NCBI RefSeq assembly: GCF_000275825.1
Contig: NZ_JH719942.1
Location: 1,124,988-1,175,807 of the forward strand
From: Saprospira grandis DSM 2844
GTDB lineage: Bacteria; Bacteroidota; Bacteroidia; Chitinophagales; Saprospiraceae
Direction of reading: 5' to 3'
Length of the DNA stretch: 50,820 nt
Part shown: piece after piece, positions 5,098-45,903 of the stretch
Numbering within the stretch: the first letter of the stretch is position 1
Layout: each line of letters starts with the position of its first letter
Program-made: the position numbers and the translations under genes
Notes under the pieces: model-generated
Databases searched by the model: none
Told to the model about the DNA's origin: nothing
Seen by the model: the letters and a program-made list of their open reading frames with translations, nothing else

Positions 5098-6240
5098 TTA
5101 ATCGACAATCATGGTATTTTTATCCAATTCTTGTTGACGAATATTTTCGGGAAGTTCTAAATACTCATATTCTTGATTGCGCAATTGCGGGCGGAAACCG
5201 GCCTCACGGATGGCGTCTTGAATCCCTTGGGCTGTAAATCGGAAGGCCGCACCGGCGGCAGAAACCACATTTTCCTCAATCATGATGCTTCCAAAATCGT
5301 TGGCGCCGGCATGTAGGCAAGCCTGGGCCACCTCCTTCCCAACGGTCAGCCAAGAAGCCTGAATATTGGTCACATTGGGCAACATAATGCGGCTGAGGGC
5401 AATCATGCGGATATATTCATCGCCGCTCACATCTCGGCGTTTGATTTTCAGGCGAGACAAAATCGTGTCTTCATCCATAAACGGCCAGGGAATAAAGGCC
5501 AAAAAGCCCTTAGCCTCCTTGGGTTTTTCGTTTTGCACCTCTCGGAGCCAGACCAAATGCTCCATGCGTTCATAATTGGTTTCGATATGGCCAAACATCA
5601 TGGTTCCGCTGGTGGTCAGATGCAATTGATGGGCGGCCCGCATCACGTCTAGCCACTCTTGGCCCCCGCATTTTCCGCGAGAAATACGGCGACGCACCCG
5701 ATCGTTGAGAATTTCGGCACCTGCCCCAGGCAAAGAATCTAGGCCTGCTTCTTTGAGGCGGCTGAGCACCTCGGTATGAGAAAGCTGATCAATTTTGGCG
5801 ATATGCGCAATTTCGGGTGGCCCCAAAGCGTGTAATTTGAGGTTAGGGTAAAGCGATTTGAGCTCCTTAAACAGATCACAATAGTAATCGATGCCCAAAT
5901 CGGGATGGTGTCCGCCTTGCAAAAGCAACTGCTGGCCGCCATACTCCATCAGCTCGTCAATTTTGCGCTTGTAGGTATCAATAGAGGTAATATAAGACTC
6001 CTCATGGCCGGGGCGGCGGAAGAAATTACAGAACTTACAGTTGGCAATACAGACATTGGTGGTATTCGAGTTGCGGTCGATAATCCAAGTCACCACATCA
6101 TTAGGGACATGATGTTGGCGCAGGCGGTTGCCCACATACATCAACTCGGCGGTGCTTGCCTCTTCGAGCAAAAAAACACCCTCCTCAATACTGAGCTCTT
6201 CTAGTTGCAGGGCTCTATGCAATAAATCGCTTACATTCAT
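5098..6240 (-). CDS. Radical SAM enzyme, MqnC/MqnE/CofH family (futalosine-pathway-type)
   Basis: The CxxxCxxC motif (CIANCKFC) and overall similarity are consistent with cyclic dehypoxanthine-futalosine / aminofutalosine synthases. The start is set at MNVSDLL (6240) rather than the upstream ATG at 6306. Confidence 0.7.
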   Translation of the reverse strand: MNVSDLLHRALQLEELSIEEGVFLLEEASTAELMYVGNRLRQHHVPNDVVTWIIDRNSNTTNVCIANCKFCNFFRRPGHEESYITSIDTYKRKIDELMEYGGQQLLLQGGHHPDLGIDYYCDLFKELKSLYPNLKLHALGPPEIAHIAKIDQLSHTEVLSRLKEAGLDSLPGAGAEILNDRVRRRISRGKCGGQEWLDVMRAAHQLHLTTSGTMMFGHIETNYERMEHLVWLREVQNEKPKEAKGFLAFIPWPFMDEDTILSRLKIKRRDVSGDEYIRMIALSRIMLPNVTNIQASWLTVGKEVAQACLHAGANDFGSIMIEENVVSAAGAAFRFTAQGIQDAIREAGFRPQLRNQEYEYLELPENIRQQELDKNTMIVD

Positions 6241-11818: not shown

Positions 11819-12019
11819 CTTAAACTATTATTTTAATTGATTAATGGTGTCAGTGATTTAGAGACTGCAGCTAAAACCAAATCTTGACTTTAGACAGTTT
11901 GCTCCAAAGACAAAATTAAATTTTTTATACTAATTTTATAATTCCCCTCTCAGAACTTTCTTCCGATTTGCTTATTTCTCTCCTCTAGCTTAACCAAAAG
12001 CGCCCTTTCTCCCCCCCTT

Positions 12020-12215
12020 GTGGCCCCGCCGTATTGGCCCAGCGCTGCGAAGGGGTGGCGCAAAGCGCCAGACCCAGGCGCTGAAAGCGCCGCAGGGCCG
12101 AGCAGACCTGCGAGCCCCGACAACAAGGACTTTAGTCCGCAGTTCGACGACCGAAGGGAGTAACCATAGCGGCGGCCGACCTAGGCAAAGCCTAGCCGGC
12201 CGCGGGCCCCAAAAC
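12020..12215 (-). repeat. Family A repeat, copy 6 (reverse; with module X)
   Basis: ggccgagcagacctgcgagccccgacaacaaggactttagtccgcagttcgacgaccgaagggagtaacc...gggccccaaaacc. It ends 10 nt before the protease start codon. Confidence 0.8.
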
Positions 12216-15563: not shown

Positions 15564-15610
15564 TACAAATGGTTTACTGAAAAAATAGGTATGTATTTAT
15601 CTAGGAGGGT

Positions 15611-15765
15611 TTTGGGGCTGCCCCTGCGGCCTTCGGCCTGGGGTCGGGCTGTGTCGCAGCTCGCAGGTCTGCTCGGCCCTGCGGCGGCTTTGCCGCCTGG
15701 GTCTGGCCTGCGGCCACTGCTGTCCATCCCTCAGCCTGCGGCCCTTTGGGCCTGTAGGAGGCCGA
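15611..15765 (+). repeat. Family A repeat, copy 7 (forward, CATCCCTCAGCC subtype)
   Basis: Near-consensus copy: ttttggggctgcccctgcggccttcggcctggggtcgggctgtgtcgcagctcgcaggtctgctcggccctgcggcggctttgccgcctgggtctggcctgcggccac. Confidence 0.85.
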
Positions 15766-15770
15766 GAGGT

Positions 15771-16214
15771 TTATTTTTTCAGTCGCATTTCGAGATAAGG
15801 ATTAGTAAATCCTAATTTTTCATAAAGATGTTTGGCGGGATTATCTTTTTCTACATGCAGAGCGATATCTCCGGGGGTTTGCTCAATTGCTGCCTGCATT
15901 AGTTGTTTTCCTAGGCCTTTTCCTCTAAATTGCGCATCTACGGCAATATAGACCAGGATATTTTCGGGGATATAGCCCGTCATACCTGTGCGATTTAGCA
16001 CTGTAGCGCCGGCCAATTGTCCTTGATGATAGATGCTAAAAATCTGGCCCCCAGCGGCTTGTTTTGTCTGGCCTAGGGAATAATCCATAGCGGCAAGAAT
16101 TTGCTCTTTGGGGTCTCCGTATTGTTCTAGATGTTTAAATAAAAAGTTGGCTATTTCTTCTTTCTCCGTTTCAGTTGGTTGATTATCAGGAGAGTAAGAT
16201 TTGATCGTTGCCAT
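15771..16214 (-). CDS. GNAT family N-acetyltransferase
   Basis: Acetyl-CoA-binding motif A (VDAQFRGKGLGKQLMQAA); 147 aa. Confidence 0.8.
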   Translation of the reverse strand: MATIKSYSPDNQPTETEKEEIANFLFKHLEQYGDPKEQILAAMDYSLGQTKQAAGGQIFSIYHQGQLAGATVLNRTGMTGYIPENILVYIAVDAQFRGKGLGKQLMQAAIEQTPGDIALHVEKDNPAKHLYEKLGFTNPYLEMRLKK

Positions 16215-16275: not shown

Positions 16276-16462
16276 TGTTTTCTACAAAGGTACGCTTTTC
16301 TGTCTGCAAAGCCAGTGAGCTAAAATACAGGGGCAGAAAAACAGTTGCCTTTAGGGGAGTTGAACTAAATTATTGTTCAATAAACAACTAATTGTCAAAC
16401 AGACAATTAAGCAAACAAGCAAAAGCTTAAAATATAATTTGGGTTAAATTTTCTTGAGTTTT

Positions 16463-16617
16463 GCAGGGCCGAAGGCCCGCAAAGGAGCGCAGCGACGCGG
16501 CTGAGGGATGGACAAGGGGGGCCGCAGGCCAGACCAAGGCGGCAAAGCCGCCGCAGGGCCGAGCAGACCTGCGAGCCCTGAAACAGCCCGACCCGCCTGA
16601 AAGGCGGGGCAGCCCCA
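16463..16617 (-). repeat. Family A repeat, copy 8 (reverse, CATCCCTCAGCC subtype)
   Basis: Reverse complement of the consensus. It ends gggcggggcagccccaacaaaaaaa, 17 nt before the Smr gene start. Confidence 0.85.
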
Positions 16618-16633
16618 ACAAAAAAATAAAAAG

Positions 16634-23318: not shown

Positions 23319-26300
23319 ATGCAAAAAAAAGCAACAGAAGCGCAGTTCTTCTTTTCTCAACTGCTCAAGCTACAGCAAGTAGACCAACCTTTGGGGGCCA
23401 AATATCAGGCATTAGATGCCCTTTTGGTCCAGTTATTTTTACAATTGACCGAAAAAGAGCGCCTACATTTTAGTGATCGCTCGGCTCGAATTGCCTTTTT
23501 GTCTCATAAAGAAGACCTCAGCCGATCGGTCCAATGGCGCATTTACCAAATTATTAAGCGGGCCAAATGGATCCGCAGAAAAGAGCTAGAGCCTACGACT
23601 GGCCAATACGCCTCGGCCCTAAAAACCGTGACCTTTGCCATTGCGGCCCTTTGTCATGTTCCTTTACCCGAAGAATTGCGGGCCTTTTTGCCCAGCGATG
23701 AGGAAGAAGAGCAAGAAGATCGCAACCCCTTCCCCATCAAAGAAGGCATTATTGAGCAGCTAAAAGTGGTGGTTTTGCAAATTGATGCCGAGCAAGAACT
23801 CATCATCTGCCAACCTTATGGAGAGGGCTATACCGACCAGCTCAGGCTGCGTTATAATGTGCCCGAAATCAATGCGCAGTTTAACAGTACTATTGAGCTG
23901 ATGCAAGATCATTTCCCTGCTGGGGCCATTTTGCAATTGCTGCATGTCTTGGTAGAAGAATCGGGAATTTTGCTGCCCAAGCGCATCATCTTAGAGCCCG
24001 ACTACTTAGTAGATGTGACCAGCATTGCCGAATGTTTTCAGCCACAGGGCGCCTCGCCCTATCTCTTCCTACTCAAAAAGTTTTCGGTCTATGAAAATAG
24101 CTTGCCGCTGATGCTAGGAAATATTGCCAACCGCTTTTTGGACCTCTTGAGCAAGAACCCCAAGCTGGGCTTTCAGGAAGAATTTAAGAAGCTGTTTAGC
24201 CTCAATCCATTGGGCTTTGCCGACTTTAAGGACACCGATATTCGCAAGACCTATCATGAGGCCAAAAACCACTTTATCAACCTCCAGCATATTATCCTCA
24301 ATGAGTTTCCCAAACAGGGGATCGAGCGAGAGCGGATTTTGCTAGAGCCCTCTTTTTACTCTGCCCTTTATGGGATTCAGGGACGTTTGGACCTCTGGCA
24401 GCCGCCAGCAGAAGGCGACGATAAGGCCTTGATTGTGGAATTGAAGAGTGGCAAAACCTTTATGCCCAATAAGTACAACCTCAATCATAATCACTATGTG
24501 CAGACCTTGCTCTATGGCTTGCTGACCAAATCGGTTTATCCTAGCTATAAGAGTTTGGCCCATATTCTTTACTCTAAATTGCAAGAAAAACCGCTGCGTC
24601 TAGCCCCTAGCACGCAGTTTAAGGAAGATGAAGCCTTGGCCCTTCGCAACCAGATGGTGATGATGGAGCGACAGCTGGCCCAATTGGACCAAAGCTCCCT
24701 GGAGGAATATGGCCTTTTGCATCAGTTGGGGCCAGCTATTCTGCCCAAAGCTAGCGGCTATACCGCTAGAGGACTGGAAGAATTTGAAGCCTGCTTTTCT
24801 AATTTGAGCGAGCTAGAACGCCGCTACTTTATTGCCTTTTGTAGCTTTATTGCCAAAGAACAAATTTTGGCTAAAACAGGGGTAGAAGGAAATGATCGCG
24901 CCAATGGACAAGCGGGGCTCTGGCTTAGCGAAAGAGCCGATAAAGACGAACATTTTGAGCTTTTGGCCGGCCTAGAACTACTAGAAAACAATAGCGAGCA
25001 AGAACCGCCTATTCTCCGCTTTAAGCGAACGGAAAATACCAACCCCCTGGCCAATTTCAGACAGGGCGATATTGCTATTTTATACCCCGAAATGGGCCAG
25101 GATGACAATGTCTTGAAGCATCAGATTTTTAAGGGCTCTATTTCTCAAATCAATGCCGAAGAGCTTTGCTTCAAGCTCTACTCTCCCCAATGTAGCGGAA
25201 GCGTTTTTGAGGCGGCCAAAAGCTGGAGCTTAGAACACGATATGCTCGATAAGGGCTTTACGGTCCAGTATCAATCGCTCTTCAAATTCATGAATTTCCA
25301 TCCGGCCAAGCGACAGCTTTTATTGGGCCAAAGGGCCCCGCAAAAAAGCAGCGCTCCCCAAAATCGGAGCTTTATGCAGCCCTATTTGGGCGAAGACCAA
25401 AAGAGGATCCTCAACAAGGCCTTGGATGCCCAAGACTACTTTTTGTTGGTGGGCCCTCCAGGTACAGGCAAAACCAAGTTTATGCTGGCCCAAATGGTCG
25501 AATATCTGCACCGAAATAGCCAAGAAAACATCTTGCTTTTGGCCTATACCAACCGAGCTGTAGATGAAATTTGCGAAGCGATTGAGGAAGTGGGTATTGA
25601 TGATTATCTGCGCATGGGCAGCCGCTATTCTTGCGATCCTCGCTTTGAACATCGGATGTTTTCGGTGCAAACAGAAGCCCTAGCTAGCCGCAAAGATCTG
25701 CGAGCGACCATCGAGAAACATCGGGTATTTGTCTCTACGGTTTCTAGCATGCTCAACCGCCCGCTTTTGCTCAAGCTCAAGCAATTTAACACGGTCATTA
25801 TTGATGAGGCATCACAGATTTTGGAGCCCATGTTGCTCGGTTTGCTTCCGCATTTTCAGCGCTTTGTGCTGATTGGCGACCATAAGCAGTTGCCAGCGGT
25901 GGTGTTGCAGGACAAAGAGCAGTCGGCGGTTAAAGATGAGTTACTCCAAAGCATTGGTTTGCGCAATCGCCGCAACTCCCTCTTTGAGCGCTTGTTTGAG
26001 CAGGCCCAAAAAGAAGGCTGGACCCATTGCTACGATCAATTGCAGCATCAGGGGCGGATGCATGCCGAAATTGCCCGCTTTCCCAGCCAATTTTTCTACG
26101 ATAACAAGTTGTTGGAACTGCCCAAAGACAACCCAATTGGAGACTGGCAGCAGCAGCCCCTCCCCTTCCGTCCGATGCCCCAGGCCTCTGCTTTGGAGCA
26201 GCTTTTGGCCCAGCATCGCCTGCTCTTTATTCCCAGTCAATCGGATTATCAGGGGAACAGCAAAACCAATGAGGAAGAAGCCATTCGGGTGGGCGAATTG

Positions 26301-26702
26301 GTCCATGCTTTCAGAAACTTATACGAGCAGCAGGGCGGCGGTTTTGCTCCTGAGGACCTTGGCATCATCACGCCTTTTCGGGCGCAGATTGCCCAGATTC
26401 GCCATGTTTTGGCCCAATATAATATGGGCTATGAGCAGTGCAGCATTGATACGGTGGAGCGTTATCAGGGTGGGGCGCGCAAAATCATTCTCTTATCTTT
26501 GGCCATCAATATGAGTCATCAATTGCCGGCCATTGTCTCGCTTTCCGATGATGAGCAGGTAGACCGCAAGCTCAATGTGGCCCTTACTCGGGCTCGGCAG
26601 CAGTTGGTGGTTTTGGGCAATCCCAAGCTATTGGCCAATGATCCTCGTTATGCGGCCCTAATGGCATGGATTAAGGAGCGGGGCGGCTACTTTACCCCTT
26701 AG
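23319..26702 (+). CDS. PD-(D/E)xK nuclease - SF1B (Upf1/DNA2-like) helicase fusion protein, candidate Nhi-like defense enzyme
   Basis: Central nuclease motifs: GRLDLW, then IVELKSGK (ExK), then QTLLYGLL (QxxxY). C-terminal helicase motifs: I GPPGTGKT; Ia LAYTNRAVDE; II IIDEASQ; III LIGDHKQLPAV; IV QGRMHAEIARFPS; V GIITPFRAQ; VI ERYQGGARKIILLS ... NVALTRARQQLVVLGN. Confidence 0.85.
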   Translation: MQKKATEAQFFFSQLLKLQQVDQPLGAKYQALDALLVQLFLQLTEKERLHFSDRSARIAFLSHKEDLSRSVQWRIYQIIKRAKWIRRKELEPTTGQYASALKTVTFAIAALCHVPLPEELRAFLPSDEEEEQEDRNPFPIKEGIIEQLKVVVLQIDAEQELIICQPYGEGYTDQLRLRYNVPEINAQFNSTIELMQDHFPAGAILQLLHVLVEESGILLPKRIILEPDYLVDVTSIAECFQPQGASPYLFLLKKFSVYENSLPLMLGNIANRFLDLLSKNPKLGFQEEFKKLFSLNPLGFADFKDTDIRKTYHEAKNHFINLQHIILNEFPKQGIERERILLEPSFYSALYGIQGRLDLWQPPAEGDDKALIVELKSGKTFMPNKYNLNHNHYVQTLLYGLLTKSVYPSYKSLAHILYSKLQEKPLRLAPSTQFKEDEALALRNQMVMMERQLAQLDQSSLEEYGLLHQLGPAILPKASGYTARGLEEFEACFSNLSELERRYFIAFCSFIAKEQILAKTGVEGNDRANGQAGLWLSERADKDEHFELLAGLELLENNSEQEPPILRFKRTENTNPLANFRQGDIAILYPEMGQDDNVLKHQIFKGSISQINAEELCFKLYSPQCSGSVFEAAKSWSLEHDMLDKGFTVQYQSLFKFMNFHPAKRQLLLGQRAPQKSSAPQNRSFMQPYLGEDQKRILNKALDAQDYFLLVGPPGTGKTKFMLAQMVEYLHRNSQENILLLAYTNRAVDEICEAIEEVGIDDYLRMGSRYSCDPRFEHRMFSVQTEALASRKDLRATIEKHRVFVSTVSSMLNRPLLLKLKQFNTVIIDEASQILEPMLLGLLPHFQRFVLIGDHKQLPAVVLQDKEQSAVKDELLQSIGLRNRRNSLFERLFEQAQKEGWTHCYDQLQHQGRMHAEIARFPSQFFYDNKLLELPKDNPIGDWQQQPLPFRPMPQASALEQLLAQHRLLFIPSQSDYQGNSKTNEEEAIRVGELVHAFRNLYEQQGGGFAPEDLGIITPFRAQIAQIRHVLAQYNMGYEQCSIDTVERYQGGARKIILLSLAINMSHQLPAIVSLSDDEQVDRKLNVALTRARQQLVVLGNPKLLANDPRYAALMAWIKERGGYFTP

Positions 26703-26726: not shown

Positions 26727-26762
26727 ATCCCGCTAGTCATCATGACTAGGGGGATATTTTTT
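26727..26762 (+). terminator. Rho-independent terminator of the nuclease-helicase gene
   Basis: The hairpin cccgctagtcat/catgactaggggg is followed by atattttttt, which runs directly into the TTTTTGGGGCC start of a repeat element. Confidence 0.65.
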
Positions 26763-26905
26763 TGGGGCCTGCCGCCTTTGGCGGCCGGGCCCTTACAGGG
26801 CTCGCAGTTCTGCTCGGCCCTGCGTCGCCTTCGGCTCCTTGGTCTGGCCTGCGGCCACCCTTACAGGCCCCTAGGCCGTTTGGCCTTCGGCCATAGGGCG
26901 GCTTA
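26754..26905 (+). repeat. Family A repeat, copy 11 (forward, CATCGCTAGGCC-like subtype)
   Basis: tttttttggggcctgccgcctttggcggcc...ctcgcagttctgctcggccc...ggtctggcctgcggccaccc...ggccgtttggccttcggcc. Confidence 0.8.
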
Positions 26906-26939
26906 GCTATGCTATTCGGTCTTTGTAGAACAATCGAGA

Positions 26940-27088
26940 CTGTTTAAAGTTTTCTGTTTCTCCTTTTTGCTGCCTAGAAACAAGCCCCTAGACTCGCTTT
27001 TTTAGACAGCCCTCTAAAGAGGGCCTTTGGAGAAGGTTCTTCTCTGCGATAACAACTGAACAAGGCCCAGTATATCAACAGTTGAGGC
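26940..27088. repeat. Second repeat family (element B), copy 1
   Basis: About 85% identical to 38858..39008: gtttaaagttttctgtttctcctttttgctgcctagaaacaagcccctagactcgc...cagacagccctctaaagagggcctttgga...aacaactgaacaaggcc...tatatcaacagttgaggc. Confidence 0.7.
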
Positions 27089-27093
27089 TAAGT

Positions 27094-27160
27094 AGTTTAC
27101 TTCCAGACCGAACTAGTTTACCCCCAGACCGAACTAGTTTACCCCCAGACAGAACTTTTG
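27094..27160. repeat. Short tandem repeat (about 22 bp x 3; agtttaccYccagaccgaact)
   Basis: Seen directly: two perfect units and one degenerate unit, immediately after element B copy 1. Confidence 0.7.
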
Positions 27161-27297
27161 CCTTTTTTCATTTTGTTGCGTTATTTTTATTTTTAACAAA
27201 GCTCTAACAATTAGGCATAAAAAAAGGCGCAAAACCTAGGTTTTACGCCTTTTTCGGTGGCCGAAGCGGGAGGTCTAGCTTAGAACTAGCTGTTGAT

Positions 27298-27420
27298 CGG
27301 CCTAGCGATGCGGAAGGGGGCGGCGAAGCCGCAGACCAAGGCCGTCAGGCCGCAGGGCCGAGCAGCCTTGCGAGCCCTGCAGCGTAGCGCCTGCCGCAGG
27401 CAGGAGGCCCCAAAACAAAA
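27298..27420 (-). repeat. Family A repeat, copy 12 (reverse, CATCGCTAGGCC subtype, short)
   Basis: ggcctagcgatgcggaagggggcggcgaagccgcagaccaaggccgtcaggccgcagggccgagcagccttgcgagccc...ggaggccccaaaac. Confidence 0.8.
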
Positions 27421-27472
27421 AAGGCCAGCCCCAGAGGAGCTGACCTTCGTCAGTAGTTAGTTAGCTAAGTCA

Positions 27473-30400
27473 TTAAGGCTTAACGACTTCAAAGTTCAGT
27501 TGGCTTTGCACGGCCTCGATATGAACATTGAGGTAATAAGTACCTGCGGGTAGGTTTTGGATAGCATCTAGGGTAATGAGGTCGCCGGGGCGGACTGTTT
27601 GGCTGCTGCTAAAGACCTGGCGGCCAAGCACATCTAGGAGTTTGAAATTCACTTTACTGCTAGTTTTGAGCTGGCTAAAGCGGATATTCACAAAATCGCT
27701 AGCGGGATTCGGGAAGACTGAAATATCGACACTTTCGGCTTCTGTATTATTTACTGCGCGGACTTCAGAGTACTCAAAGTCTCCGTTGAAATCGACTTGT
27801 CGTAGGCGGTAGTAAGTAGTATTCTCGTAGCTATTGTTATCGGTATAGCTATAGTAATTGGTTGTAGTGCTATTACCTTGACCTTGGACAAAATCGATTT
27901 GGCTAAAGTCGGTTTCATAGTCAAACATGCGTTCTACCTCAAAGCCTTGGTTATCTCTTTCTGTTTCGCTGGCCCAAGAGAGGAGCACTGTAGAAGAAGA
28001 CTGGCGTTCGGCATTGAAGAAGAGCCATTCGATGGGGAAATCGACATAAGTATTGGCATCGCGCCAGTCATTATCGTCGAGTCCGTCATTGTTGGGAGTT
28101 GGAGCGGTAGTACCGAGAGCGCTACCATTCACATTATCGTCGAAGATATCGGCGAGGCCATCATTATCGGCATCGATCCAGAAAGGAGAGTTAGGATCGA
28201 GGAAAGGAGGTGTTTGGTTATTGGTATAGCCATTTCCGTTGAGGTTATCTAGCCAATCGGGTAGGCCATCTCCATCGCTATCGGGATTGGGATAGTGAGC
28301 GGGATTACCGCCGTTGGCGACATAGGCTGCGGCCATTTGGATAATTTCGTCGGCGGCATTGCCATCGCCGGCGGTGGCGGTACCGAAGCCATTATCGAAG
28401 CCTTCGGCCCAGTCATAGCCGCTATCATTATCAGCATCGAGATCTAGATAATCTGCGGGAGCGCTGCCGTCATTATTATCCTCATTGGGCGTAGCGCCGA
28501 TATTTGCGCCTGTAGTTTGGTTAGCGGCATCTAGGCCTTCGTAGATATCGAGTACTCCGTTACCGTTAGCATCGGTGCCAGAAGGCGTCATGCCGAAGGT
28601 GGGGCAAGTAGAGCAAACGGCTTCTAGATAATCTGGAATACCGTCATTATCGGCATCGATATCATAGAGGTCGGCAATACCGTCGGCATCTGTATCCAAG
28701 AGATTGATAGTTCCATTTTGGAGGTCAGACCAGCCGTCGCCATTAGCGTCGGTAATGGGACCATCTTCAATTTGGCCATCGAGGGTACCGTTGCTGGGAG
28801 AATCGGTATTAGCGGCTCCGGTTACTGCGCCTGCTGCGGCTTCGACTACATCTGTAATTCCGTCATTATCGCTATCGAGATCGAGGAAATTGGGAGTAGC
28901 GTCGGCATCTGCGTTAGCATTTGGATAGCTATCGGGAGTGCCATCATTGTTATTGTCGGCGCCAGTCAAGATGAGTACGGCAGCGCTATTATCGGCGGTA
29001 CCATCATTATTGGGGTCACCGTCTAGGGCATCGGCAAAGCCATCGCCATCGGCATCGGTAAATGTATCTACGCGGCCATTGCCATCGGCATCGGTTCCAG
29101 CAGCTTCCAAGATATCTTGGATTCCATCGTTATCGCTATCGAGGTCATAGATATTGAGGAGGCCATCGGCATCGAAATCGCCATTGGGGTAAGTATCGGC
29201 TTGGCCGTCGTTGTTACTATCGGTTCCGGTAAGGATAAGAGCTTGAGCGCTATTCTCGGCGGTACCGTCATTTCCGACATCGCCATCGAGGATATCATGC
29301 AGGCCGTCGTTATCGGTATCGACAAAGTCGTCGGCAAAACCGTCTCCGTTGGTATCGGTTCCGCCAGCTTCTACCACATCGGCGATACCATCATTATCGC
29401 TATCGAGGTCATAGATATTGAGGAGACCGTCGTTATCTGCGTCGCCATTGGGATAATTATCGGGGGCACCGTCATTATTGACATCATTGCCTGTAAGGAT
29501 AAGAGCTTGAGCGCTATTCTCGGTGGTACCGTCGTTTCCGACATCGCCATCGAGGACATCATGCAGGCCGTCATTATCGGTATCGCTGAAATTATCGGCT
29601 AGGCCATCTCCGTTCGTATCGGTTCCGCCGGCTTCTACCAGATCGGTAATACCGTCATTATCGCTATCGAGGTCTAGTTGGTTGGGGATACCGTCACCAT
29701 CGACATCATTGTTAGGATAGCTATCAGCTAGGCCATCATTATTATTATCGGCGCCAGTAAGTTGGAGCGCATTAGCGGTATTTTCGGCGGTACCATCGTT
29801 TCCGACATCGCCATCAACAGCATCATGAAAACCATCGCCATCGGTATCGACAAAGTTATCGATTCGGCCATCGCCATCGGCATCAGTTCCGCCGGCTTCT
29901 ACGGCATCAGGAATACCGTCATTATCGCTATCGAGGTCATAGATATCTAAGATACCGTCAGCGTCAGAATCACCATTAAGATAACTATCGGCTAGGCCAT
30001 CATTATTATTATCGGCGCCAGTAAGTTGGAGCGCATTAGCGGTATTTTCTGCTGTGCCATCATTTCCTACATCCCCATCGACGACATCATGAAAGCCATC
30101 GCCATCGGTATCTGTAAAAGCATCTATTTGGCCATTACCGTCAGTATCTTCACCTCCAATTTCTACTAAATCAGGAATACCATCATTATCAGAATCTAGA
30201 TCTAAGCTATTCGGAATACCATCATTATCAGAATCTAAACCAGTAATTAAATTCCCGGCAGTACCGGTACCAATATAACTAACCTCCATATTAGAGATAC
30301 AAGAGGCCACTCCAGAGCAAAGAGATGGGTCTACATCTGTAGTTGTATTCATAATTATAACAACAACACCGTCGTCATTAGCGGTATTCCAAGAAGCAGT

Positions 30401-32491
30401 AGGAATACTAATAGGATTCATATCCATAGCAGGACTACCACAATTTGCATAAGCAGTATTGCTAGAATTTTGACGATTAAAAGGGCCTAAGATAGTTCCA
30501 TCCTCTAACTCTAGCGTAAAACTAGCGGCATCTGTGCCATAAGCACCCGACAAAGAAAAGGACAAAGAGGGAGCTACTGCTACATCTAAAGTATTGACAC
30601 TAAAACTAAGTGTATGGCTAGGCCCAACAGTATTCCGGCATTCATCTGAATAAGTTGCAGTAGATGCTCCACCAATCTCATCATCATAGATATCAACTAA
30701 ACCATCGCCATCTATATCTAGATCAGAGTCAACTTGGCCATCACCATCAGTATCAACTCCGCCAGCCTCTACAATATCTGGAATACCATCATTATCGGCA
30801 TCTAAGTCTACATGATCGGGAGAACCATCACCATCGGCATCAAAATTAGCACAAACACTATTAGAGATACCAGAGCAATAAGGAAAATCTACATCAGAAT
30901 AATTTGGGACACCATCGCCATCTAAGTCTCCAGAAGGATCTGGCAGACCATCTGCACAGTCCCAACCATTTACTCCCGCAAAAACATCTGCGCAGAAATT
31001 GGGATCAGCATAATCTGGTGTACCATCGCCATCATGATCTCCATTATAGATTTCTACAATATCCAGAACGCCATCATTGTCATCATCAATATCACAGGCA
31101 CTCAAAAGGTTATCTTCATCAATTTCTGTAGTATAGTTGGGGTTCTGAATAGGTACATATAAAGAAACAGATCCACCAGCAGTTCCATCAACTGATCCAT
31201 TTCTAGCACCATTAGTATGTTCACCTCCAGCACCACCATCAGAAATAAAAGTAAGATTGGTAGGTATAGAAGCCAGAGAGTATAACAAGGCTCCGCCACC
31301 GCCGCCACCACCTGGTCCATGCTCATTCGTGGTATTCAAATTTTGACCATCTCCTCCAGATACATTTACACTTAACAAGCCTTCATAAACTTGTGTTTTA
31401 AGAACAACGCTACCTCCAGCGCCTCCTCCGCCACCACCATCTGGGGCACCCACAGGATTTACAGCCACAGGAGTGGTCCCTCGAACATTGATAGTGTAGC
31501 CGTTTCCAACAATCGTATCCGCAAAAACAATTACAATTCCACCACCATCAGCAGCAGAAGAAGGGTTATTTGTAGATACCCAACCAGGTCCACCAGCACC
31601 ACCCAAGAACACTTTATCTTGAGCAAGATAGCTGTTTAAAGCAGCTCCACCTATACCTCCAGCAGGATCAACTTTATTGCACCAACGATTACCTCCATTT
31701 CCACCTTCACCATAGTTACTTCCGCCTCCTCCTCCAGAGTCACCAGAAGCACCAGAACCACCACCATTGGCCCGCTTTCCACGTCCATGGTTGGTAGCTG
31801 GATCATCTACAACAATACCACTCCCTTTTTCCCATGCTTCAATAGCTGTATTTGGTAGCGTATATTGAAGAGTTGGATCAATGGTACAGTTGTCTGGGCT
31901 TCCATTAACCGTCATTTGAATACCTTGATACCCCTTTCCTAAAAGATCAATATCCGCATTCAATACCAATTTATCCGTCACCAAGGCCAAAACCCCACCA
32001 ACACCATTCGTCTCACTCCAATCTTGAGCCGTCAAAGTAGAGTTGACCTCCACTACATTGTTTCCATAATCTGGAATCCGCACAACTTGCACCACTCCAG
32101 TTACATCATAATTCCGAATCAATGAATATTTAGGCGTCAATACATTTCCGGTAATACTCCCAATTTCAAAAAATTCATAGTTACCCGCCTCGTTAATATT
32201 CAAAATATCTCCTGAAGCAGATGTATTCGTCACATCTATATCCGCTCCCTTCATCTGAATAATCAAGGCCTTATCCCCAGCTGCAAAAGCCGAAGGGTCT
32301 TGCACCGTAATAGTATGCGCACAGGCCTGATCACAGGGATCGCATACGGGTAAATTTAACGATGTTACTGCCGTATAGTCATTGATAATCCCCCCAATGC
32401 TCACCTGAGCAATGGCAGAGCCCCCATACAACAAACAGAAAGCAAGGACAAAAACTGCCCTCCTTAAGTAGTTTGTAATTTTCACGTTCAT
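27473..32491 (-). CDS. Giant secreted calcium-binding repeat adhesin (thrombospondin type-3 repeats) with T9SS C-terminal sorting domain
   Basis: 1672 aa. It has a signal peptide, Gly-rich segments, more than 20 DxDxDGxxDxxD/DNDGIPD repeats and a C-terminal Por_Secre_tail (VFPNPASDFVNIRF...). The internal DNA units of about 270 bp are near-identical. Confidence 0.85.
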   Translation of the reverse strand: MNVKITNYLRRAVFVLAFCLLYGGSAIAQVSIGGIINDYTAVTSLNLPVCDPCDQACAHTITVQDPSAFAAGDKALIIQMKGADIDVTNTSASGDILNINEAGNYEFFEIGSITGNVLTPKYSLIRNYDVTGVVQVVRIPDYGNNVVEVNSTLTAQDWSETNGVGGVLALVTDKLVLNADIDLLGKGYQGIQMTVNGSPDNCTIDPTLQYTLPNTAIEAWEKGSGIVVDDPATNHGRGKRANGGGSGASGDSGGGGGSNYGEGGNGGNRWCNKVDPAGGIGGAALNSYLAQDKVFLGGAGGPGWVSTNNPSSAADGGGIVIVFADTIVGNGYTINVRGTTPVAVNPVGAPDGGGGGGAGGSVVLKTQVYEGLLSVNVSGGDGQNLNTTNEHGPGGGGGGGALLYSLASIPTNLTFISDGGAGGEHTNGARNGSVDGTAGGSVSLYVPIQNPNYTTEIDEDNLLSACDIDDDNDGVLDIVEIYNGDHDGDGTPDYADPNFCADVFAGVNGWDCADGLPDPSGDLDGDGVPNYSDVDFPYCSGISNSVCANFDADGDGSPDHVDLDADNDGIPDIVEAGGVDTDGDGQVDSDLDIDGDGLVDIYDDEIGGASTATYSDECRNTVGPSHTLSFSVNTLDVAVAPSLSFSLSGAYGTDAASFTLELEDGTILGPFNRQNSSNTAYANCGSPAMDMNPISIPTASWNTANDDGVVVIIMNTTTDVDPSLCSGVASCISNMEVSYIGTGTAGNLITGLDSDNDGIPNSLDLDSDNDGIPDLVEIGGEDTDGNGQIDAFTDTDGDGFHDVVDGDVGNDGTAENTANALQLTGADNNNDGLADSYLNGDSDADGILDIYDLDSDNDGIPDAVEAGGTDADGDGRIDNFVDTDGDGFHDAVDGDVGNDGTAENTANALQLTGADNNNDGLADSYPNNDVDGDGIPNQLDLDSDNDGITDLVEAGGTDTNGDGLADNFSDTDNDGLHDVLDGDVGNDGTTENSAQALILTGNDVNNDGAPDNYPNGDADNDGLLNIYDLDSDNDGIADVVEAGGTDTNGDGFADDFVDTDNDGLHDILDGDVGNDGTAENSAQALILTGTDSNNDGQADTYPNGDFDADGLLNIYDLDSDNDGIQDILEAAGTDADGNGRVDTFTDADGDGFADALDGDPNNDGTADNSAAVLILTGADNNNDGTPDSYPNANADADATPNFLDLDSDNDGITDVVEAAAGAVTGAANTDSPSNGTLDGQIEDGPITDANGDGWSDLQNGTINLLDTDADGIADLYDIDADNDGIPDYLEAVCSTCPTFGMTPSGTDANGNGVLDIYEGLDAANQTTGANIGATPNEDNNDGSAPADYLDLDADNDSGYDWAEGFDNGFGTATAGDGNAADEIIQMAAAYVANGGNPAHYPNPDSDGDGLPDWLDNLNGNGYTNNQTPPFLDPNSPFWIDADNDGLADIFDDNVNGSALGTTAPTPNNDGLDDNDWRDANTYVDFPIEWLFFNAERQSSSTVLLSWASETERDNQGFEVERMFDYETDFSQIDFVQGQGNSTTTNYYSYTDNNSYENTTYYRLRQVDFNGDFEYSEVRAVNNTEAESVDISVFPNPASDFVNIRFSQLKTSSKVNFKLLDVLGRQVFSSSQTVRPGDLITLDAIQNLPAGTYYLNVHIEAVQSQLNFEVVKP

Positions 32492-37045: not shown

Positions 37046-37190
37046 TTTGGGGCCTCCGCCTCGCTGCGCTCGTCGGCGCTACGCTTTGGGGCTCGCAGGT
37101 CTGCTCGGCCCTTCGCCAGCAAGCTGGCTCGGTCTGGCCTAACGGCCACCCCACCGCATCGCTAGGCCAGGCTGGCCTTCGGCCAGCCTT
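37046..37190 (+). repeat. Family A repeat, copy 15 (forward, CATCGCTAGGCC subtype)
   Basis: ttggggcctccgcc...cgctacgctttggggctcgcaggtctgctcggccc...ggtctggcctaacggccacc...catcgctaggccaggctggccttcggccagcc. Confidence 0.8.
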
Positions 37191-37320
37191 CTAGATCCAA
37201 ACAGATTTGGCCCTTTCTACAGACTTTTGTAATTTTTTAGGCCCTTTGGGCTAACCATCATCCCCTTTGGGGTATTATTCATTGAGCTCACAAGCTTGCC
37301 CCCCCAGAAACCTCTTTTTT

Positions 37321-37893
37321 ATGGATATTTCAATTGCGGCCCTTCGGGCTGGAGACCAAAGCGCCTACAAAGCCCTCTATGAACAGGCCTATTGGTATTG
37401 TGCTAGTTATTTGCTCCAACAGGGCGCCCAAGAAACCGATGCCAAAGCTACTTTTAATCGGGCCCTAGAGATTTTTTGGACCAAAATGCAAACGCCCGAT
37501 TTCGAGCTCAGTTGCCAACCCAAAACTTATCTCTATGCCGTTTGCCGAAACCTCTGGCTCAAACAGCTCCGCAAACGAAAGAAAAACCCCATCCTCCAAG
37601 ATGAGGAACGCCTGCTGCAAGAGCCCCTCCCCCATTTGGTCCAAGAAGAGGTCTATTTTTTAGAGGAAGAAGAGGCCGACCCCCTACTTATGACCGCCAT
37701 GAAAGCCCTAAGTAGCATGAAGAATACCGATTGCCAAAAAGTGCTGGAGCTCTACTATTTTGAGAAGAAGTCGCATCGAGAAATTGAGCAAATTATGGGC
37801 TTTGCCGATAATTACTCTAAGGTCAAGAAAAATAGCTGTATCAAACAGCTCAAAAAACAATTGCTGCGCCTACTGGGCCAGCCCAAAGCTTAA
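37321..37893 (+). CDS. ECF-type RNA polymerase sigma-70 family factor
   Basis: A region-2-like segment (YLYAVCRNLWLKQLRK) and a region-4 HTH (KSHREIEQIMGFADNYSKVKKNSCIKQLK). The start is taken at MDISIAAL. Confidence 0.8.
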   Translation: MDISIAALRAGDQSAYKALYEQAYWYCASYLLQQGAQETDAKATFNRALEIFWTKMQTPDFELSCQPKTYLYAVCRNLWLKQLRKRKKNPILQDEERLLQEPLPHLVQEEVYFLEEEEADPLLMTAMKALSSMKNTDCQKVLELYYFEKKSHREIEQIMGFADNYSKVKKNSCIKQLKKQLLRLLGQPKA

Positions 37894-37897
37894 ACTT

Positions 37898-38788
37898 ATG
37901 GATTTTCATAGCCCCGAATGGCTGGATGCTTTCCAGCAAAACCAACTCTCTGCCGAAGAGCGAGCCGCTACCCTTGCCTTGGCCCAAAAAGATGCCGCCT
38001 ATGCCGCCGAGCTGCAGGCGCATGGCATCGCTATCCAAGCTATTCAGGATTTTAGCCGCCAAAGCGCTGTAGAAAAAATGGCCCAAGAACTAGATGAGGA
38101 AGGCCTTTTTGAACGCCCCATAGAACAAGCCCTACAGACTCAAGCCGCCCAAAAACAAATTGGCCAAATTGCCCAAGAATTAGAAGCAGAAGGCTTTTTT
38201 GCCCAAAAGGAAGAAAAAGAAAAAGAGGTTAAGGTTCGCCCCCTCCCCCGCTGGCGCCCAATTATGGGTATTGCCGCTAGCCTAATTTTATTAGTGAGTC
38301 TGGGCTATTGGTGGCAGAAGTCGCAAAGCCTACCCAGCTGGTCTCAAGAATACGCTATCGCCAGTGCAGAGTCTACCCAAAAGGAGTTACAACTGCTTTT
38401 AGGCGCCCAAGGCTTTGGCCAAAATGAAGAAGCCCTCAGACAGTTGCAGCTCGGCCTCAATGCTTATGAGAAAAAGGATTGGACCAAAGCTAAAACAGAA
38501 TTGCTGGCCTACCAAAAGGCCAATTCTATCTTTGCCCAAGAAGAAACCCAGTTTTATCTGGGCCATATCGCTTTTGAGCAAGGAGAGCTAGGCAGCGCAA
38601 AATCCTACTGGCAAGAGCTGGCCCAATTGCCTAGCCTGCCCCCCCATATTTCCGAAAAACTCCCTTGGTATCAGGCGCTCTTGGCCCTACGCGAAAACCA
38701 AAAAGAACTGGCCAAAAGCTACCTGAAAAAGGTGCCCCAAGGCCCCTATCAAGAAAAAGCAAAAGAGCTCTTGCAAACACTAGAGTAA
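37898..38788 (+). CDS. Putative anti-sigma factor (single-pass membrane protein with TPR-like C-terminus)
   Basis: It sits immediately downstream of the ECF sigma gene (4-nt gap), has one TM helix (IMGIAASLILLVSLGYWW) and a periplasmic TPR-like C-terminal region. The start is taken at MDFHSPEW rather than the overlapping upstream frame. Confidence 0.6.
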   Translation: MDFHSPEWLDAFQQNQLSAEERAATLALAQKDAAYAAELQAHGIAIQAIQDFSRQSAVEKMAQELDEEGLFERPIEQALQTQAAQKQIGQIAQELEAEGFFAQKEEKEKEVKVRPLPRWRPIMGIAASLILLVSLGYWWQKSQSLPSWSQEYAIASAESTQKELQLLLGAQGFGQNEEALRQLQLGLNAYEKKDWTKAKTELLAYQKANSIFAQEETQFYLGHIAFEQGELGSAKSYWQELAQLPSLPPHISEKLPWYQALLALRENQKELAKSYLKKVPQGPYQEKAKELLQTLE

Positions 38789-38857
38789 TATAAGGCCTTG
38801 CTCCTTAGTAGAATATTAGATGATCCCCTCCTCGGAGGGGATTTGAGCCTGTTTAAA

Positions 38858-39050
38858 ATTTTGTGTTTCTCCTTTTTGCTGCCTAGGGACAAGCCCCTAG
38901 GCTAGCTTTTTCAGACAGCCCTCTAAAGAGGGCCTTTGGATGAGGTTTTTCTCTGTGACAACAACTGAACAAGGCCTTGTATATCAATAGTTGAGGCCCT
39001 CGCAGAGGGCTGACTCCATTGGATTAGCCTAGGGGCTTGTCCCTGGGCGA
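38858..39050. repeat. Second repeat family (element B), copy 2, with 21-bp terminal inverted repeats
   Basis: About 85% identical to 26940..27088. The internal inverted repeat is ctgcctagggacaagcccctaggct ... agcctaggggcttgtccctgg. There are internal hairpins (gccctctaaagagggc; gccctcgcagagggc). Confidence 0.7.
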
Positions 39051-39137
39051 CTATTGGCCAAATCCCAACAAGCTAAAGGCCCAAATTTTATTCTAATACA
39101 CAAAATCCTGAACAGTCCCAGGGATTTTTTTTGTGCC

Positions 39138-39484
39138 CTATTCGACAGAGATCAAACAGCTCATCAAAGTCTTGATGCCCTATTCGACAGAGATCTAATA
39201 CCCCATCAAAGGCTTGATGCCCTATTCGACAGAGATCTAATACCCCATCAAAGGCTTGATGCCCTAGTTGACAGAGATCAAACAGCCCATCAAAGGCTTG
39301 ATGCCCTAGTTGACAGAGATCTAATACCCCATAAAAGGCTTGATGCCCTAGTTGACAGAGATCAAATACCCTATAAAAGGCTTGATGCCCTAGTTGACAG
39401 AGATCAAATACCCCATCAAAGGCTTGATGCCCTATTCGACAGAGATCTAACAGCTCATCAAAGGCTTGATGCCCTAGTTGGTCC
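39138..39484. repeat. 42-bp tandem repeat array (8 full units plus a partial unit), frame-preserving
   Basis: The units begin at 39138, 39180, 39222, 39264, 39306, 39348, 39390 and 39432. Consensus: ctaKtYgacagagatcWaaYaSCYcatMaaaGKcttgatgcc. There are no interspersed unique spacers. Confidence 0.9.
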
Positions 39485-39520
39485 AAAAACAAAAGGGGCT
39501 GCTCGATATCGAGCAGCCCC
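39480..39520 (-). terminator. Rho-independent terminator downstream of the outer-membrane protein gene
   Basis: The perfect palindrome ggggctgctcgatatcgagcagcccc is followed on the minus strand by ttttgtttttgg. Confidence 0.7.
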
Positions 39521-39543
39521 TTTGCAGCAGGTCCTAAGTCATC

Positions 39544-41226
39544 TTAGAACTTAGCCATTACACCAATTTTTCCATTGATGCCCAATTGCTGATAGAGGTA
39601 CCAGCGTTGGTATTTATTATTGAGCAAATTATTGCCTTCTACAAAGAAAGCAAAGCGTTGTTGCTCTCCTTTTCCGAGCCAGTAAGTAGCATTGAGGTTA
39701 AGGTCAAACAAGCCGCCAAGAGTTTCGCTTTCGGTGCCCAAGGCAGGGAGATAAGGCACGCCCGCATTGACAAAGAGGTCGGCCCCAACTTCTAGATTGC
39801 CTTTTTTGTATGTCAGGCCAAAGCTAGACTCCAAAACAGGCAGATGATAAGCCACTTCAGCCGTTCCGCCACTATAGTTATTAAAGGCCAAAGCGCCTTT
39901 AAAGTAGAGTTCCTCCATAATTTGGAGTTCTACATCTGCGGCCAGGGTTAGGCGGCTGAGCGTATCATAGGCCAGACCAAATTTCAGATAATTGCTTTCT
40001 GTGGTATTATAGAAAAGGGGTTGTTGGCTCAAATTGGCATAAGAGACATTAAAGTCGTAGCCTAGGCGCTTAATCTTCCCTTTGAGTCCCCCATAAAAGC
40101 GGCTTTCTTGCGTATGTTCCCAATGCAGGCGCTCTGTATCTAAGAAAGGATTATAAGTAGAGAGCTGCATGAGGGTATTTTCACGGATGCTGCCCGACCA
40201 ACCTGCATAGGGAATAAATTGGCCCCCTAAAACGGCATAGCTCAACTCAATATCGGGCAAAACGAAAAACTGTCCGGCATTGCTTCCTAAGCGGGCGCCT
40301 AGACGGCTCTTAAAGTTGCCAAAATTGAGGTCGGCTCCAGCATGCAATTGGGCCAGGCTGCGGCTTTGGCTGCTATCGGTGGTGGTATAGCGGCTATACA
40401 GCAGCTCGGCATTGGCAAAGAGGCGATGTTGAGGGCTGCGGCTATTGCCCAACCATTTTTCAAAAACAAGGCGGGGGCGGATATTGAGCTCGCCAACGCC
40501 ATGATAAGAAGTGGTGTTATAGAGGTCCAGATCGGCTCTATAGTTCATCTCTTGTTTATTACTTTTGGCATTGAAGAGATGAATATTGGCCCCTATTGTA
40601 AGGTAGCGTTGTTTGAGGCTATCTTCGGCTAGGCCAGAGCTATCTTGGGCAAAGGGATAGAGGCTATCGCCTAGGTTTTCGAGGAGTTGGTGGTAGCCAT
40701 AGTAGCGATAATTATTGAGGTCCATATTTAGGGCGCCGCCAATGGCTAGGCCATTAGGCAGAAAATAATCGCCTTGTAGATTTACTGAGGTTTCGCCAAA
40801 AACTTGGTCCTCTAAGTTACCTTGGCTACTATGGTGTTTGGCTGTAGCTCCAAAGCTAAACTTATCGCTATTGCTATTGTGGTAAGAGAGTTCTAGCAAA
40901 GGGGAAAGAGGGAAACCAATGCCCGCCTTTGTATAAAAGTGGAGACTTTTGGGGGGCTTAGGCACCGGCATAGCCAGTGGGCGGATATTAGGTTCTGGAT
41001 AATTGACCGAGACGATCCGTTCGGGGACCAGATAGGTCAATTTTTGGCCAGCGGTGGTATCCAAATCGGCTAAAAGAGGCTGAGCCTCCTGCTTTTTACT
41101 TTCGGCCAATTGGGCCTTAAAGGGTTTGACTAGCTCGGTCCCTACATCATTGATTTGGGCCTTTAGGTTGGGGGCAAAAAGCCCAACAGCCAAAGCTAAA
41201 CAAAGAGATTTACTATATTTTATCAT
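39544..41226 (-). CDS. Outer-membrane beta-barrel protein (hypothetical)
   Basis: Signal peptide (MIKYSKSLCLALAVGLFAPNLKAQ), alternating amphipathic beta-strand pattern and a C-terminal aromatic residue (…GVMAKF). Confidence 0.6.
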   Translation of the reverse strand: MIKYSKSLCLALAVGLFAPNLKAQINDVGTELVKPFKAQLAESKKQEAQPLLADLDTTAGQKLTYLVPERIVSVNYPEPNIRPLAMPVPKPPKSLHFYTKAGIGFPLSPLLELSYHNSNSDKFSFGATAKHHSSQGNLEDQVFGETSVNLQGDYFLPNGLAIGGALNMDLNNYRYYGYHQLLENLGDSLYPFAQDSSGLAEDSLKQRYLTIGANIHLFNAKSNKQEMNYRADLDLYNTTSYHGVGELNIRPRLVFEKWLGNSRSPQHRLFANAELLYSRYTTTDSSQSRSLAQLHAGADLNFGNFKSRLGARLGSNAGQFFVLPDIELSYAVLGGQFIPYAGWSGSIRENTLMQLSTYNPFLDTERLHWEHTQESRFYGGLKGKIKRLGYDFNVSYANLSQQPLFYNTTESNYLKFGLAYDTLSRLTLAADVELQIMEELYFKGALAFNNYSGGTAEVAYHLPVLESSFGLTYKKGNLEVGADLFVNAGVPYLPALGTESETLGGLFDLNLNATYWLGKGEQQRFAFFVEGNNLLNNKYQRWYLYQQLGINGKIGVMAKF

Positions 41227-41258
41227 TTGATTTTTCTTTAGACGATCTATTTTGGAGA

Positions 41259-41420
41259 GGACAGGCGGCGAAGCCGCCGCAAAGGAGCGCAGCGACGCGG
41301 CTGAGGGATGGAGAGGGTGGCCCGCAGGGCCAGACCGAAGCGCTTTAGCGCTGAAGGGCCGAGCAGACCTGCGAGCCCGGAACAGCCCGACCCGCCCGCA
41401 GGGCGGGGCAGCCCCAAAAA
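41259..41420 (-). repeat. Family A repeat, copy 16 (reverse, CATCCCTCAGCC subtype)
   Basis: gacaggcggcgaagccgccgc...gctgagggatgg...gggccgagcagacctgcgagcccgg...gggcggggcagccccaaaaaaa. Confidence 0.85.
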
Positions 41421-41429
41421 AAGAAAGAT

Positions 41430-45715: not shown

Positions 45716-45772
45716 AACAAATATAGATTCTAGGGTAGTGGGCAAAAATAAGGGCTGGGCTGGGGAGCAAAT

Positions 45773-45889
45773 GGCCTAGCGATGTGCAAGGGTGGCCGTC
45801 AGGCCAGACCGAGGCGCAAAGCGCCGAAGGGCCGAGCAGGCCTGCGAGCCCTGGAACGTAGCGCCTGCCGAAGGCAGGAGGCCCCAAAA
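45773..45889 (-). repeat. Family A repeat, copy 18 (reverse, short, CATCGCTAGGCC subtype)
   Basis: ggcctagcgatgtgcaagggtggccgtcaggccagacc...gggccgagcaggcctgcgagccc...ggaggccccaaaaa. Confidence 0.8.
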
Positions 45890-45903
45890 ATAACAGCAGT
45901 AAG

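Follow-up and report, generated by a model that had tools for sequence, protein, structure and literature searches.

Intergenic VNTR/MLVA loci, such as MIRU-VNTR of Mycobacterium tuberculosis, are built of head-to-tail units of tens of bp. Their copy number varies between strains at one orthologous locus, and their unit variants are shuffled by recombination within the array. MIRUs are dispersed over about 40 loci, mostly inside operons. The sopC site of plasmid F consists of 12 tandem units of 43 bp in direct orientation, each with a 16-bp inverted repeat, and is bound by SopB. Enterobacterial REP/BIME elements lie outside genes at 3′ ends, often between convergent genes, and form mosaic tandems with imperfect dyads; REP sequences have strong stem-loops, are present in hundreds of copies and alternate in orientation. 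CRISPR arrays show regular spacing and partial dyad symmetry of their repeats, which are separated by spacers.

The locus described here is a 42-bp minisatellite of Saprospira grandis DSM 2844, analysed within a window of 50,820 nt (the whole stretch of DNA under study). The tract is a genuine non-coding bacterial VNTR of a known kind, and is neither a gene nor a new system. Very probably, it was born locally in S. grandis from the spacer between two convergent terminators, gains and loses copies through slippage or unequal recombination, and is without function. The array and its surroundings, numbered from the first nucleotide of the window, are as follows.

37267-37893, plus strand: ECF-type sigma factor gene (weak Sigma70_r2/r4 matches)
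37898-38788, plus strand: gene for a 296-aa membrane protein, putative anti-sigma factor (from the ORF list), downstream of the ECF-type sigma gene
38822-38844, plus strand: terminator hairpin GATCCCCTCCTCGGAGGGGATT of the anti-sigma-like gene, split from its T-run by the MITE in DSM 2844
38845-39119, no strand: MITE-like element of 275 bp, with terminal inverted repeats of about 21 bp (GAGCCTGTTTAAAATTTTGTG, CACAAAATCCTGAACAGTCCC)
39054-39554, plus strand: 166-aa ORF, an artefact; begins at a TTG within the MITE, passes through the array and OMP terminator, and overlaps the stop codon of the OMP gene
39088-39492, minus strand: 134-aa ORF, likewise an artefact, reading the array in the other direction
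39106-39133, plus strand: terminator-like hairpin of the MITE right end (39106-39123) with the displaced T8 (39125-39132), abutting unit 1
39134-39481, no strand: 42-bp minisatellite, 8 full units (39134-39469) and a 12-nt partial ninth (39470-39481)
39482-39523, minus strand: intrinsic-terminator-like element of the OMP gene, a 14-bp-stem hairpin (39492-39523) with a T-run (39482-39491); right boundary of the array
39544-41226, minus strand: gene for a 560-aa outer-membrane protein (OMP), 100% identical to SapgrDRAFT_0956, NCBI name 'TonB-dependent receptor'

Tandem Repeats Finder returned a single strong array at 39134-39478, with a period of 42, 8.2 copies, 91% matches, no indels and a score of 522. 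The eight units and the partial ninth (TGCCCTAGTTGG) agree with the original prediction, which had placed the same array at 39138-39484, in a register shifted by 4 nt. The consensus unit is TGCCCTA(G/T)T(T/C)GACAGAGATC(A/T)AA(T/C)A(C/G)C(C/T)CAT(C/A)AAAGGCTTGA, and a degenerate 39-mer of the unit has eight matches in the window compared with none in 100 shuffles. Nine of the 42 unit positions are variable in the DSM 2844 array. The variant blocks (ATTC/AGTT; CAAAC/CTAAT/CAAAT/CTAAC; AGCTC/ACCCC/AGCCC/ACCCT; ATC/ATA; AGT/AGG) had all been read correctly, and in a four-gamete test all four allele combinations were present in 10 of the 36 site pairs, so that the mosaic of units described earlier is real. 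Units 2 and 3 are identical, and among the remaining units 1 and 8 are the closest. The GATC that had been noted in every unit occurs exactly once in each, at a spacing of exactly 42 bp.

No further occurrence of the unit was found in 667 kb of scanned sequence. Saprospira accounts for about 95 kb of this, made up of the 50.8-kb window and some 45 kb of further DNA, and it is to these 95 kb that the term single locus refers. A 25-nt junction pattern with 23 specified bases (CTTGATGCCCTANTNGACAGAGATC) had no matches in the JGI metagenomes and IMG/VR, nor in the GTDB representative genomes, where Saprospira itself seems to be absent. A protein-seeded scan of the GTDB representatives gave relatives at 22–38% identity (best segment) only, so the lack of a match to the junction pattern in that collection is silent on other S. 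grandis loci. A blastn comparison of the unit with 72,556 plasmids and 50,697 phages found nothing.

The orthologous loci of strains Lewin, WH-T and CCB-QB6 and of four metagenome contigs (L003, L054, L055 and L056) were compared, the relatives being reached through the 90% cluster members of the OMP homologue. The genome of WH-T is a hybrid Nanopore and Illumina assembly (PMC10508125); DSM 2844 is presumably strain Sa g1, the second of the older genomes that this paper cites. The alleles found at this site are listed below.

Lewin (CP002831.1, L051): 13 full units and 12 nt; 13.1 copies and 94% matches by Tandem Repeats Finder
DSM 2844: 8 units and 12 nt; 8.2 copies
L055: about 3 diverged units, with 5–10 mismatches to the consensus
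L054, sister scaffold of L055: a 100-N gap inside the array
Type strain WH-T (CP110854.1, L052) and L056: exactly 1 unit and 12 nt (54 nt); 1.3 copies each
Saprospira sp. CCB-QB6 (L053): unrepeated 33-nt spacer TCCCCCTGCTGGACAGAGATCTAAGTGAGTTGG; 0 copies
L003, metagenome relative: unrepeated 32-nt spacer CCCCCTAGTTGACGGATAGCTAAGTAAATTGG; 0 copies

With 0, 1.3, about 3, 8.2 and 13.1 copies at the orthologous site, the comparison across strains called for by the original prediction bears out the hypervariability of the array, and the length of the tract goes from 54 nt in the single-unit alleles to 348–558 nt in the large arrays. In the OMP gene tree, the five unit-bearing genomes form one clade, and CCB-QB6 and L003 lie outside it. 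Divergence of the OMP gene within the unit-bearing clade is 3–5% at the nucleotide level (12–20% at four-fold sites), and for the spacer-only genomes it is 8–10% (28–33% at four-fold sites). Copy number is incongruent with this tree, Lewin (13.1 copies) being the sister of L056 (1.3 copies). The OMP divergence among genomes labelled Saprospira grandis (12–18% at four-fold sites, 3–5% over all nucleotides) also indicates, for this one gene, that the named species is genetically broad.

Variant nucleotides are common to several strains and are shuffled among the units, as would fit the inter-unit recombination suggested previously. Both large arrays (DSM 2844 and Lewin) hold an adjacent pair of CATAAAAGG units, blocks of two units are duplicated in the Lewin array (types A-E-A-E-A at the 3′ end), and the single-unit alleles carry variants of the large arrays (AAACAGCCC in L056, ACCTC in WH-T). 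Read from the sequences, these patterns point to an ancestral polymorphic array that was probably reshaped by unequal exchange, conversion and contraction. Seven of the 13 Lewin units are identical, and for this reason the unit counts taken from the older assemblies (Lewin and DSM 2844) may be wrong by one unit or more. The units of DSM 2844 and Lewin have no fixed difference, although the adjacent gene has diverged by 15.8% at its four-fold sites. With 3 differences in 118 nt, however, the rest of this intergenic region outside the repeats is just as well conserved, and the conservation of the unit is therefore not specific evidence of constraint.

The array occupies part of a 755-bp gap between two convergent genes. 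The OMP terminator hairpin, expected at 39493-39520 beside the array, was found there with slightly wider limits. The tract of every allele sits exactly between the T-runs of these two convergent terminators. In Lewin and WH-T, the anti-sigma hairpin is followed by 8–9 T and then directly by unit 1, and the OMP terminator comes after the last partial unit; the tract is bracketed by both terminator hairpins, with their T-runs facing inward. The left bracket of DSM 2844 differs, and consists of the MITE-end hairpin and the displaced T-run. Since the tract fills the gap from terminator to terminator, it is the DNA least likely to be transcribed, and a search for sigma-70-like promoters around the array (in DSM 2844 and in another allele) found none. 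The neighbours are the sigma/anti-sigma pair, the OMP, TPR, YjbQ, UPF0093, TsaD, S1 and ABC-F genes, on a chromosome of 4.2–4.4 Mb, and there are no partition or replication genes within about 10 kb of the array. The exact 296-aa putative anti-sigma protein is also present on a Logan contig. One homologue of the OMP shows 95% identity and all others 48% or less, and a protein-seeded scan of metagenome contigs gave nothing beyond the 95% relative. The Lewin OMP is annotated with 71 more residues (631 aa) than in the other strains, probably a matter of the start-codon call.

The MITE-like element was inserted in the T-run of the anti-sigma terminator, splitting the hairpin from the T-run, and is flanked by a GGGATTT target duplication (38838-38844 and 39121-39127). 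Lewin, WH-T, L056 and L055 lack the insertion at this site. CCB-QB6 has a shorter copy elsewhere (L053, about 5846-5976, minus strand), with its own duplication (GAGTAAAG); missing from it are about 146 bp of the interior, flanked on both sides by inverted GCCTAGGGACAAGCCCCTAGGC motifs. Across copies, the target duplication is 7–8 bp. A partial copy, the left half only, lies at 26936-27088 of the window. What the original prediction had called element B (38849-38997) is the left part of this separate insertion and does not belong to the array. The idea that the array arrived together with element B was rejected: Lewin, which has no MITE, has the larger array, and the MITE is delimited just upstream of the array by terminal inverted repeats and a target duplication of its own. 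Lewin combines the longest array with the lack of a MITE, and the two are therefore independent. Around the array, contigs from short-read metagenomes and from Logan stop at the terminator hairpins and MITE ends or fold back on themselves there (L057 2195-2280; the ends of L001, L002 and L033), making this intergenic region a systematic assembly breakpoint. L057, which ends in such a fold-back at the terminator, gave no allele for the comparison.

The outgroup spacer of CCB-QB6 and L003 matches roughly the first 21 nt of the unit (CCCTAGTTGACAGAGATCTAA), and because this part is still recognisable there, the unit was born locally. In the single-unit 54-nt alleles, the opening of a 42-nt segment recurs imperfectly in the 12 nt that come directly after the segment (TCCCCTATTCGA ... 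TGCCCTAGTTGG). This 54-nt form, a 42-nt segment flanked by a 12-nt direct repeat, was probably the seed of the array. Misalignment of the direct repeats, by replication slippage or unequal recombination, would then produce a duplication with junctions that are hybrids of both copies, and the internal ATTC/AGTT polymorphism looks like such hybrids. Further unequal exchange, along with gene conversion, could expand, contract and shuffle the units, and turnover of this sort would give rise to the mosaic of variants and to very different copy numbers in close strains. Slippage or recombination is the probable mechanism and, in all likelihood, the tract has no function; it probably persists because the terminator-to-terminator gap is untranscribed and changes in its length are costless. 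The GATC is present in the single-copy precursor of CCB-QB6 (GACAGAGATCTAAG) and missing in L003 (GACGGATAGCTAAG). Inherited from the precursor and missing in the other outgroup, it looks like a passenger.

Several other explanations of the tract can be set against this one. It is hardly credible that the array, or the differences in its length, are artefacts of assembly. Short-read assemblies do break here (the 100-N gap of L054, and Logan and JGI contigs that end at nearby repeats) and many Lewin units are identical, but the same unit is found at the same site in the independent projects of DSM 2844, Lewin and WH-T and in three metagenome contigs, each allele has an ordered and distinct set of variants, and in a hybrid assembly with Nanopore reads the contrast between 54 nt and 348–558 nt cannot have arisen by collapse. 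A protein of 14-residue repeats, encoded on the plus strand (ALFDRDQTAHQRLD) or on the minus strand, is extremely unlikely, even though ORFs of 166 and 134 aa span the array and gene callers also place ORFs on the Lewin array, where both frames are open. The freedom from stop codons on both strands was previously seen as a feature of the array; both ORFs exist, but chance predicts them, with one open frame per strand expected in 79% of random and 91% of window-derived 42-mers repeated eight times, and the frames are open because the period is divisible by 3. Neither ORF has a match in Pfam. A word search with the plus-strand ORF found no homologue among 5.8 billion proteins, and phmmer with the minus-strand ORF over 1.84 billion proteins gave only unrelated repeat proteins with a 14-aa period; an exact look-up of the minus-strand ORF found no record either. 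The TTG start of the plus-strand ORF lies in a MITE that is absent from the other strains, its frame reads through the 14-bp terminator stem, and WH-T and L056 have only 54 nt at the site. Variable sites are spread over codon positions 1, 2 and 3 as 4, 2 and 3, seven of the 14 residues vary, and eight of the nine variable sites are non-synonymous, with radical changes such as A/P, Q/L and H/Y. With open frames at chance level and no real homologues for either ORF, the earlier view of the tract as non-coding is upheld.

That the array is transcribed and works at the RNA level is likewise very unlikely on the sequence evidence, whether it gave a repeat-containing small RNA or lengthened the OMP mRNA at its 3′ end, the hairpins of the units being the functional modules. 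The minus strand of 39100-39530 folds better than its shuffles (z = −5.15; plus strand, z = −2.77) and weak TTTG-type motifs can perhaps be read on it, but a good fold is given by any such array, because mildly dyad units that repeat allow long-range pairing. The hairpins of individual units are weak (−1.2 to −3.8 kcal/mol, z of about 0 to −3; −3.8 kcal/mol as DNA). The array is also downstream of both convergent terminators, has no promoter-like site and no significant Rfam match (best E = 2.5 at a permissive threshold, a chance-level value), and is absent from close relatives. It is unlikely that the units are phased sites recognised by a dimeric DNA-binding protein, whether as a centromere-like array (as F sopC), an iteron-like one, or an element of the nucleoid or of topology. 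In favour of this reading, the unit is mildly dyad-symmetric, its 16-nt arms pairing at 12 of 16 positions, as in 1.6% of random 42-mers (p of about 0.016), and it contains a perfect 6-4-6 palindrome CATCAAAGGCTTGATG (CATCAA-AGGC-TTGATG); a perfect 6-bp stem occurs in 10% of random 42-mers. The period of 42 equals 4 × 10.5, or four helical turns, each unit has one GATC, DSM 2844 and Lewin share their consensus, and the arrangement resembles the sopC array with its inverted repeat in each unit. Against this, the array is absent or in single copy in WH-T, L056, CCB-QB6 and L003, and is therefore dispensable, and it has housekeeping neighbours, no partition or replication genes nearby, no plasmid or phage match, and conservation that does not exceed that of the flanking intergenic DNA. 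The palindrome is destroyed in the L055 allele (CATCAATGTCTTTTTG), where the best stem is 3 bp and the arms pair at 10 of 16, and no pattern of compensatory covariation between the dyad arms was seen by hand among the unit variants. Since the dyad is lost in one allele, a protein-binding array is only a minor possibility. It is quite unlikely, too, that the tract is non-neutral in a broader sense, its phased dyad and GATC sites being bound by a chromosomal DNA-binding or methylation-reading protein, so as to act as a length-variable buffer of topology or transcription collision or as a centromere-like loading site; changes in copy number would then be heritable, strain-to-strain variation in the buffering or loading activity.

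In practice, the array is a ready and highly discriminating VNTR marker for S. grandis strains and metagenome populations. It also offers a natural series of minisatellite birth, from a unique spacer of 33 nt, through the 54-nt form with its 12-nt direct repeat, to arrays of 3–13 units. The 'hypothetical proteins' called on the tract are artefacts and short-read assemblies break at the array, both of them a warning to annotators. The importance of the array would rise only if it binds a protein, or affects the sigma/anti-sigma or OMP genes.

The window carries other repeats. A 21-bp sequence (TAGTTTACCCCCAGACCGAAC), repeated three times in tandem at 27093-27156, directly follows the truncated MITE copy; it sits between the convergent genes 23319-26702 (plus strand) and 27473-32491 (minus strand), and may be a second small VNTR. 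Within the latter, a 1672-aa ORF, there is a 264-bp tandem repeat of 4.8 copies (75% matches) at 28837-30112, which encodes an 88-residue repeat of this very large protein. About 20 intergenic GC-rich islands (at least 64% GC, 100–200 bp) are present in this 47%-GC window, for example at 26751-26900, 27276-27450, 16451-16625, 15601-15775, 2476-2625, 11976-12175, 37051-37200, 41251-41425 and 45751-45900. Their core is repeated in both orientations, with 82–90% identity between 26796-26862 and 16514-16580, 15659-15717, 45788-45853, 12067-12117 and 2463-2564. The islands are a REP-like dispersed family, and are both more REP-like and more unusual than the 42-bp array.

The array itself shares features with each of the described systems. 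It is similar to CRISPR in its regular spacing and in the partial dyad symmetry of its repeats but, unlike CRISPR, its units abut without spacers and the examined window region holds no cas genes, so the earlier exclusion of a CRISPR array, made for want of unique spacers, was correct. Like REP/BIME elements, it lies outside genes at 3′ ends, between convergent genes, and is a mosaic tandem with imperfect dyads; unlike REP, its hairpins are weak, all of its units are in direct orientation, and one locus is known. The resemblance to sopC lies in the direct tandem arrangement, the unit length (42 versus 43 bp) and the single short dyad-symmetric motif per unit. Unlike sopC, it has a chromosomal housekeeping context, without parA/parB-type (sopAB) genes nearby or a match to plasmids or phages, and is dispensable, with the dyad lost in L055. 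With intergenic VNTR/MLVA loci such as MIRU-VNTR it shares an intergenic position, units of tens of bp that follow one another head to tail, a copy number that varies between strains at one orthologous locus, and unit variants that are shuffled by recombination within the array. It differs from MIRUs in that the unit was seen at one locus in the approximately 95 kb of Saprospira sequence scanned, that the array lies in the gap between convergent terminators, and that its single-copy precursor is still visible in the outgroups.
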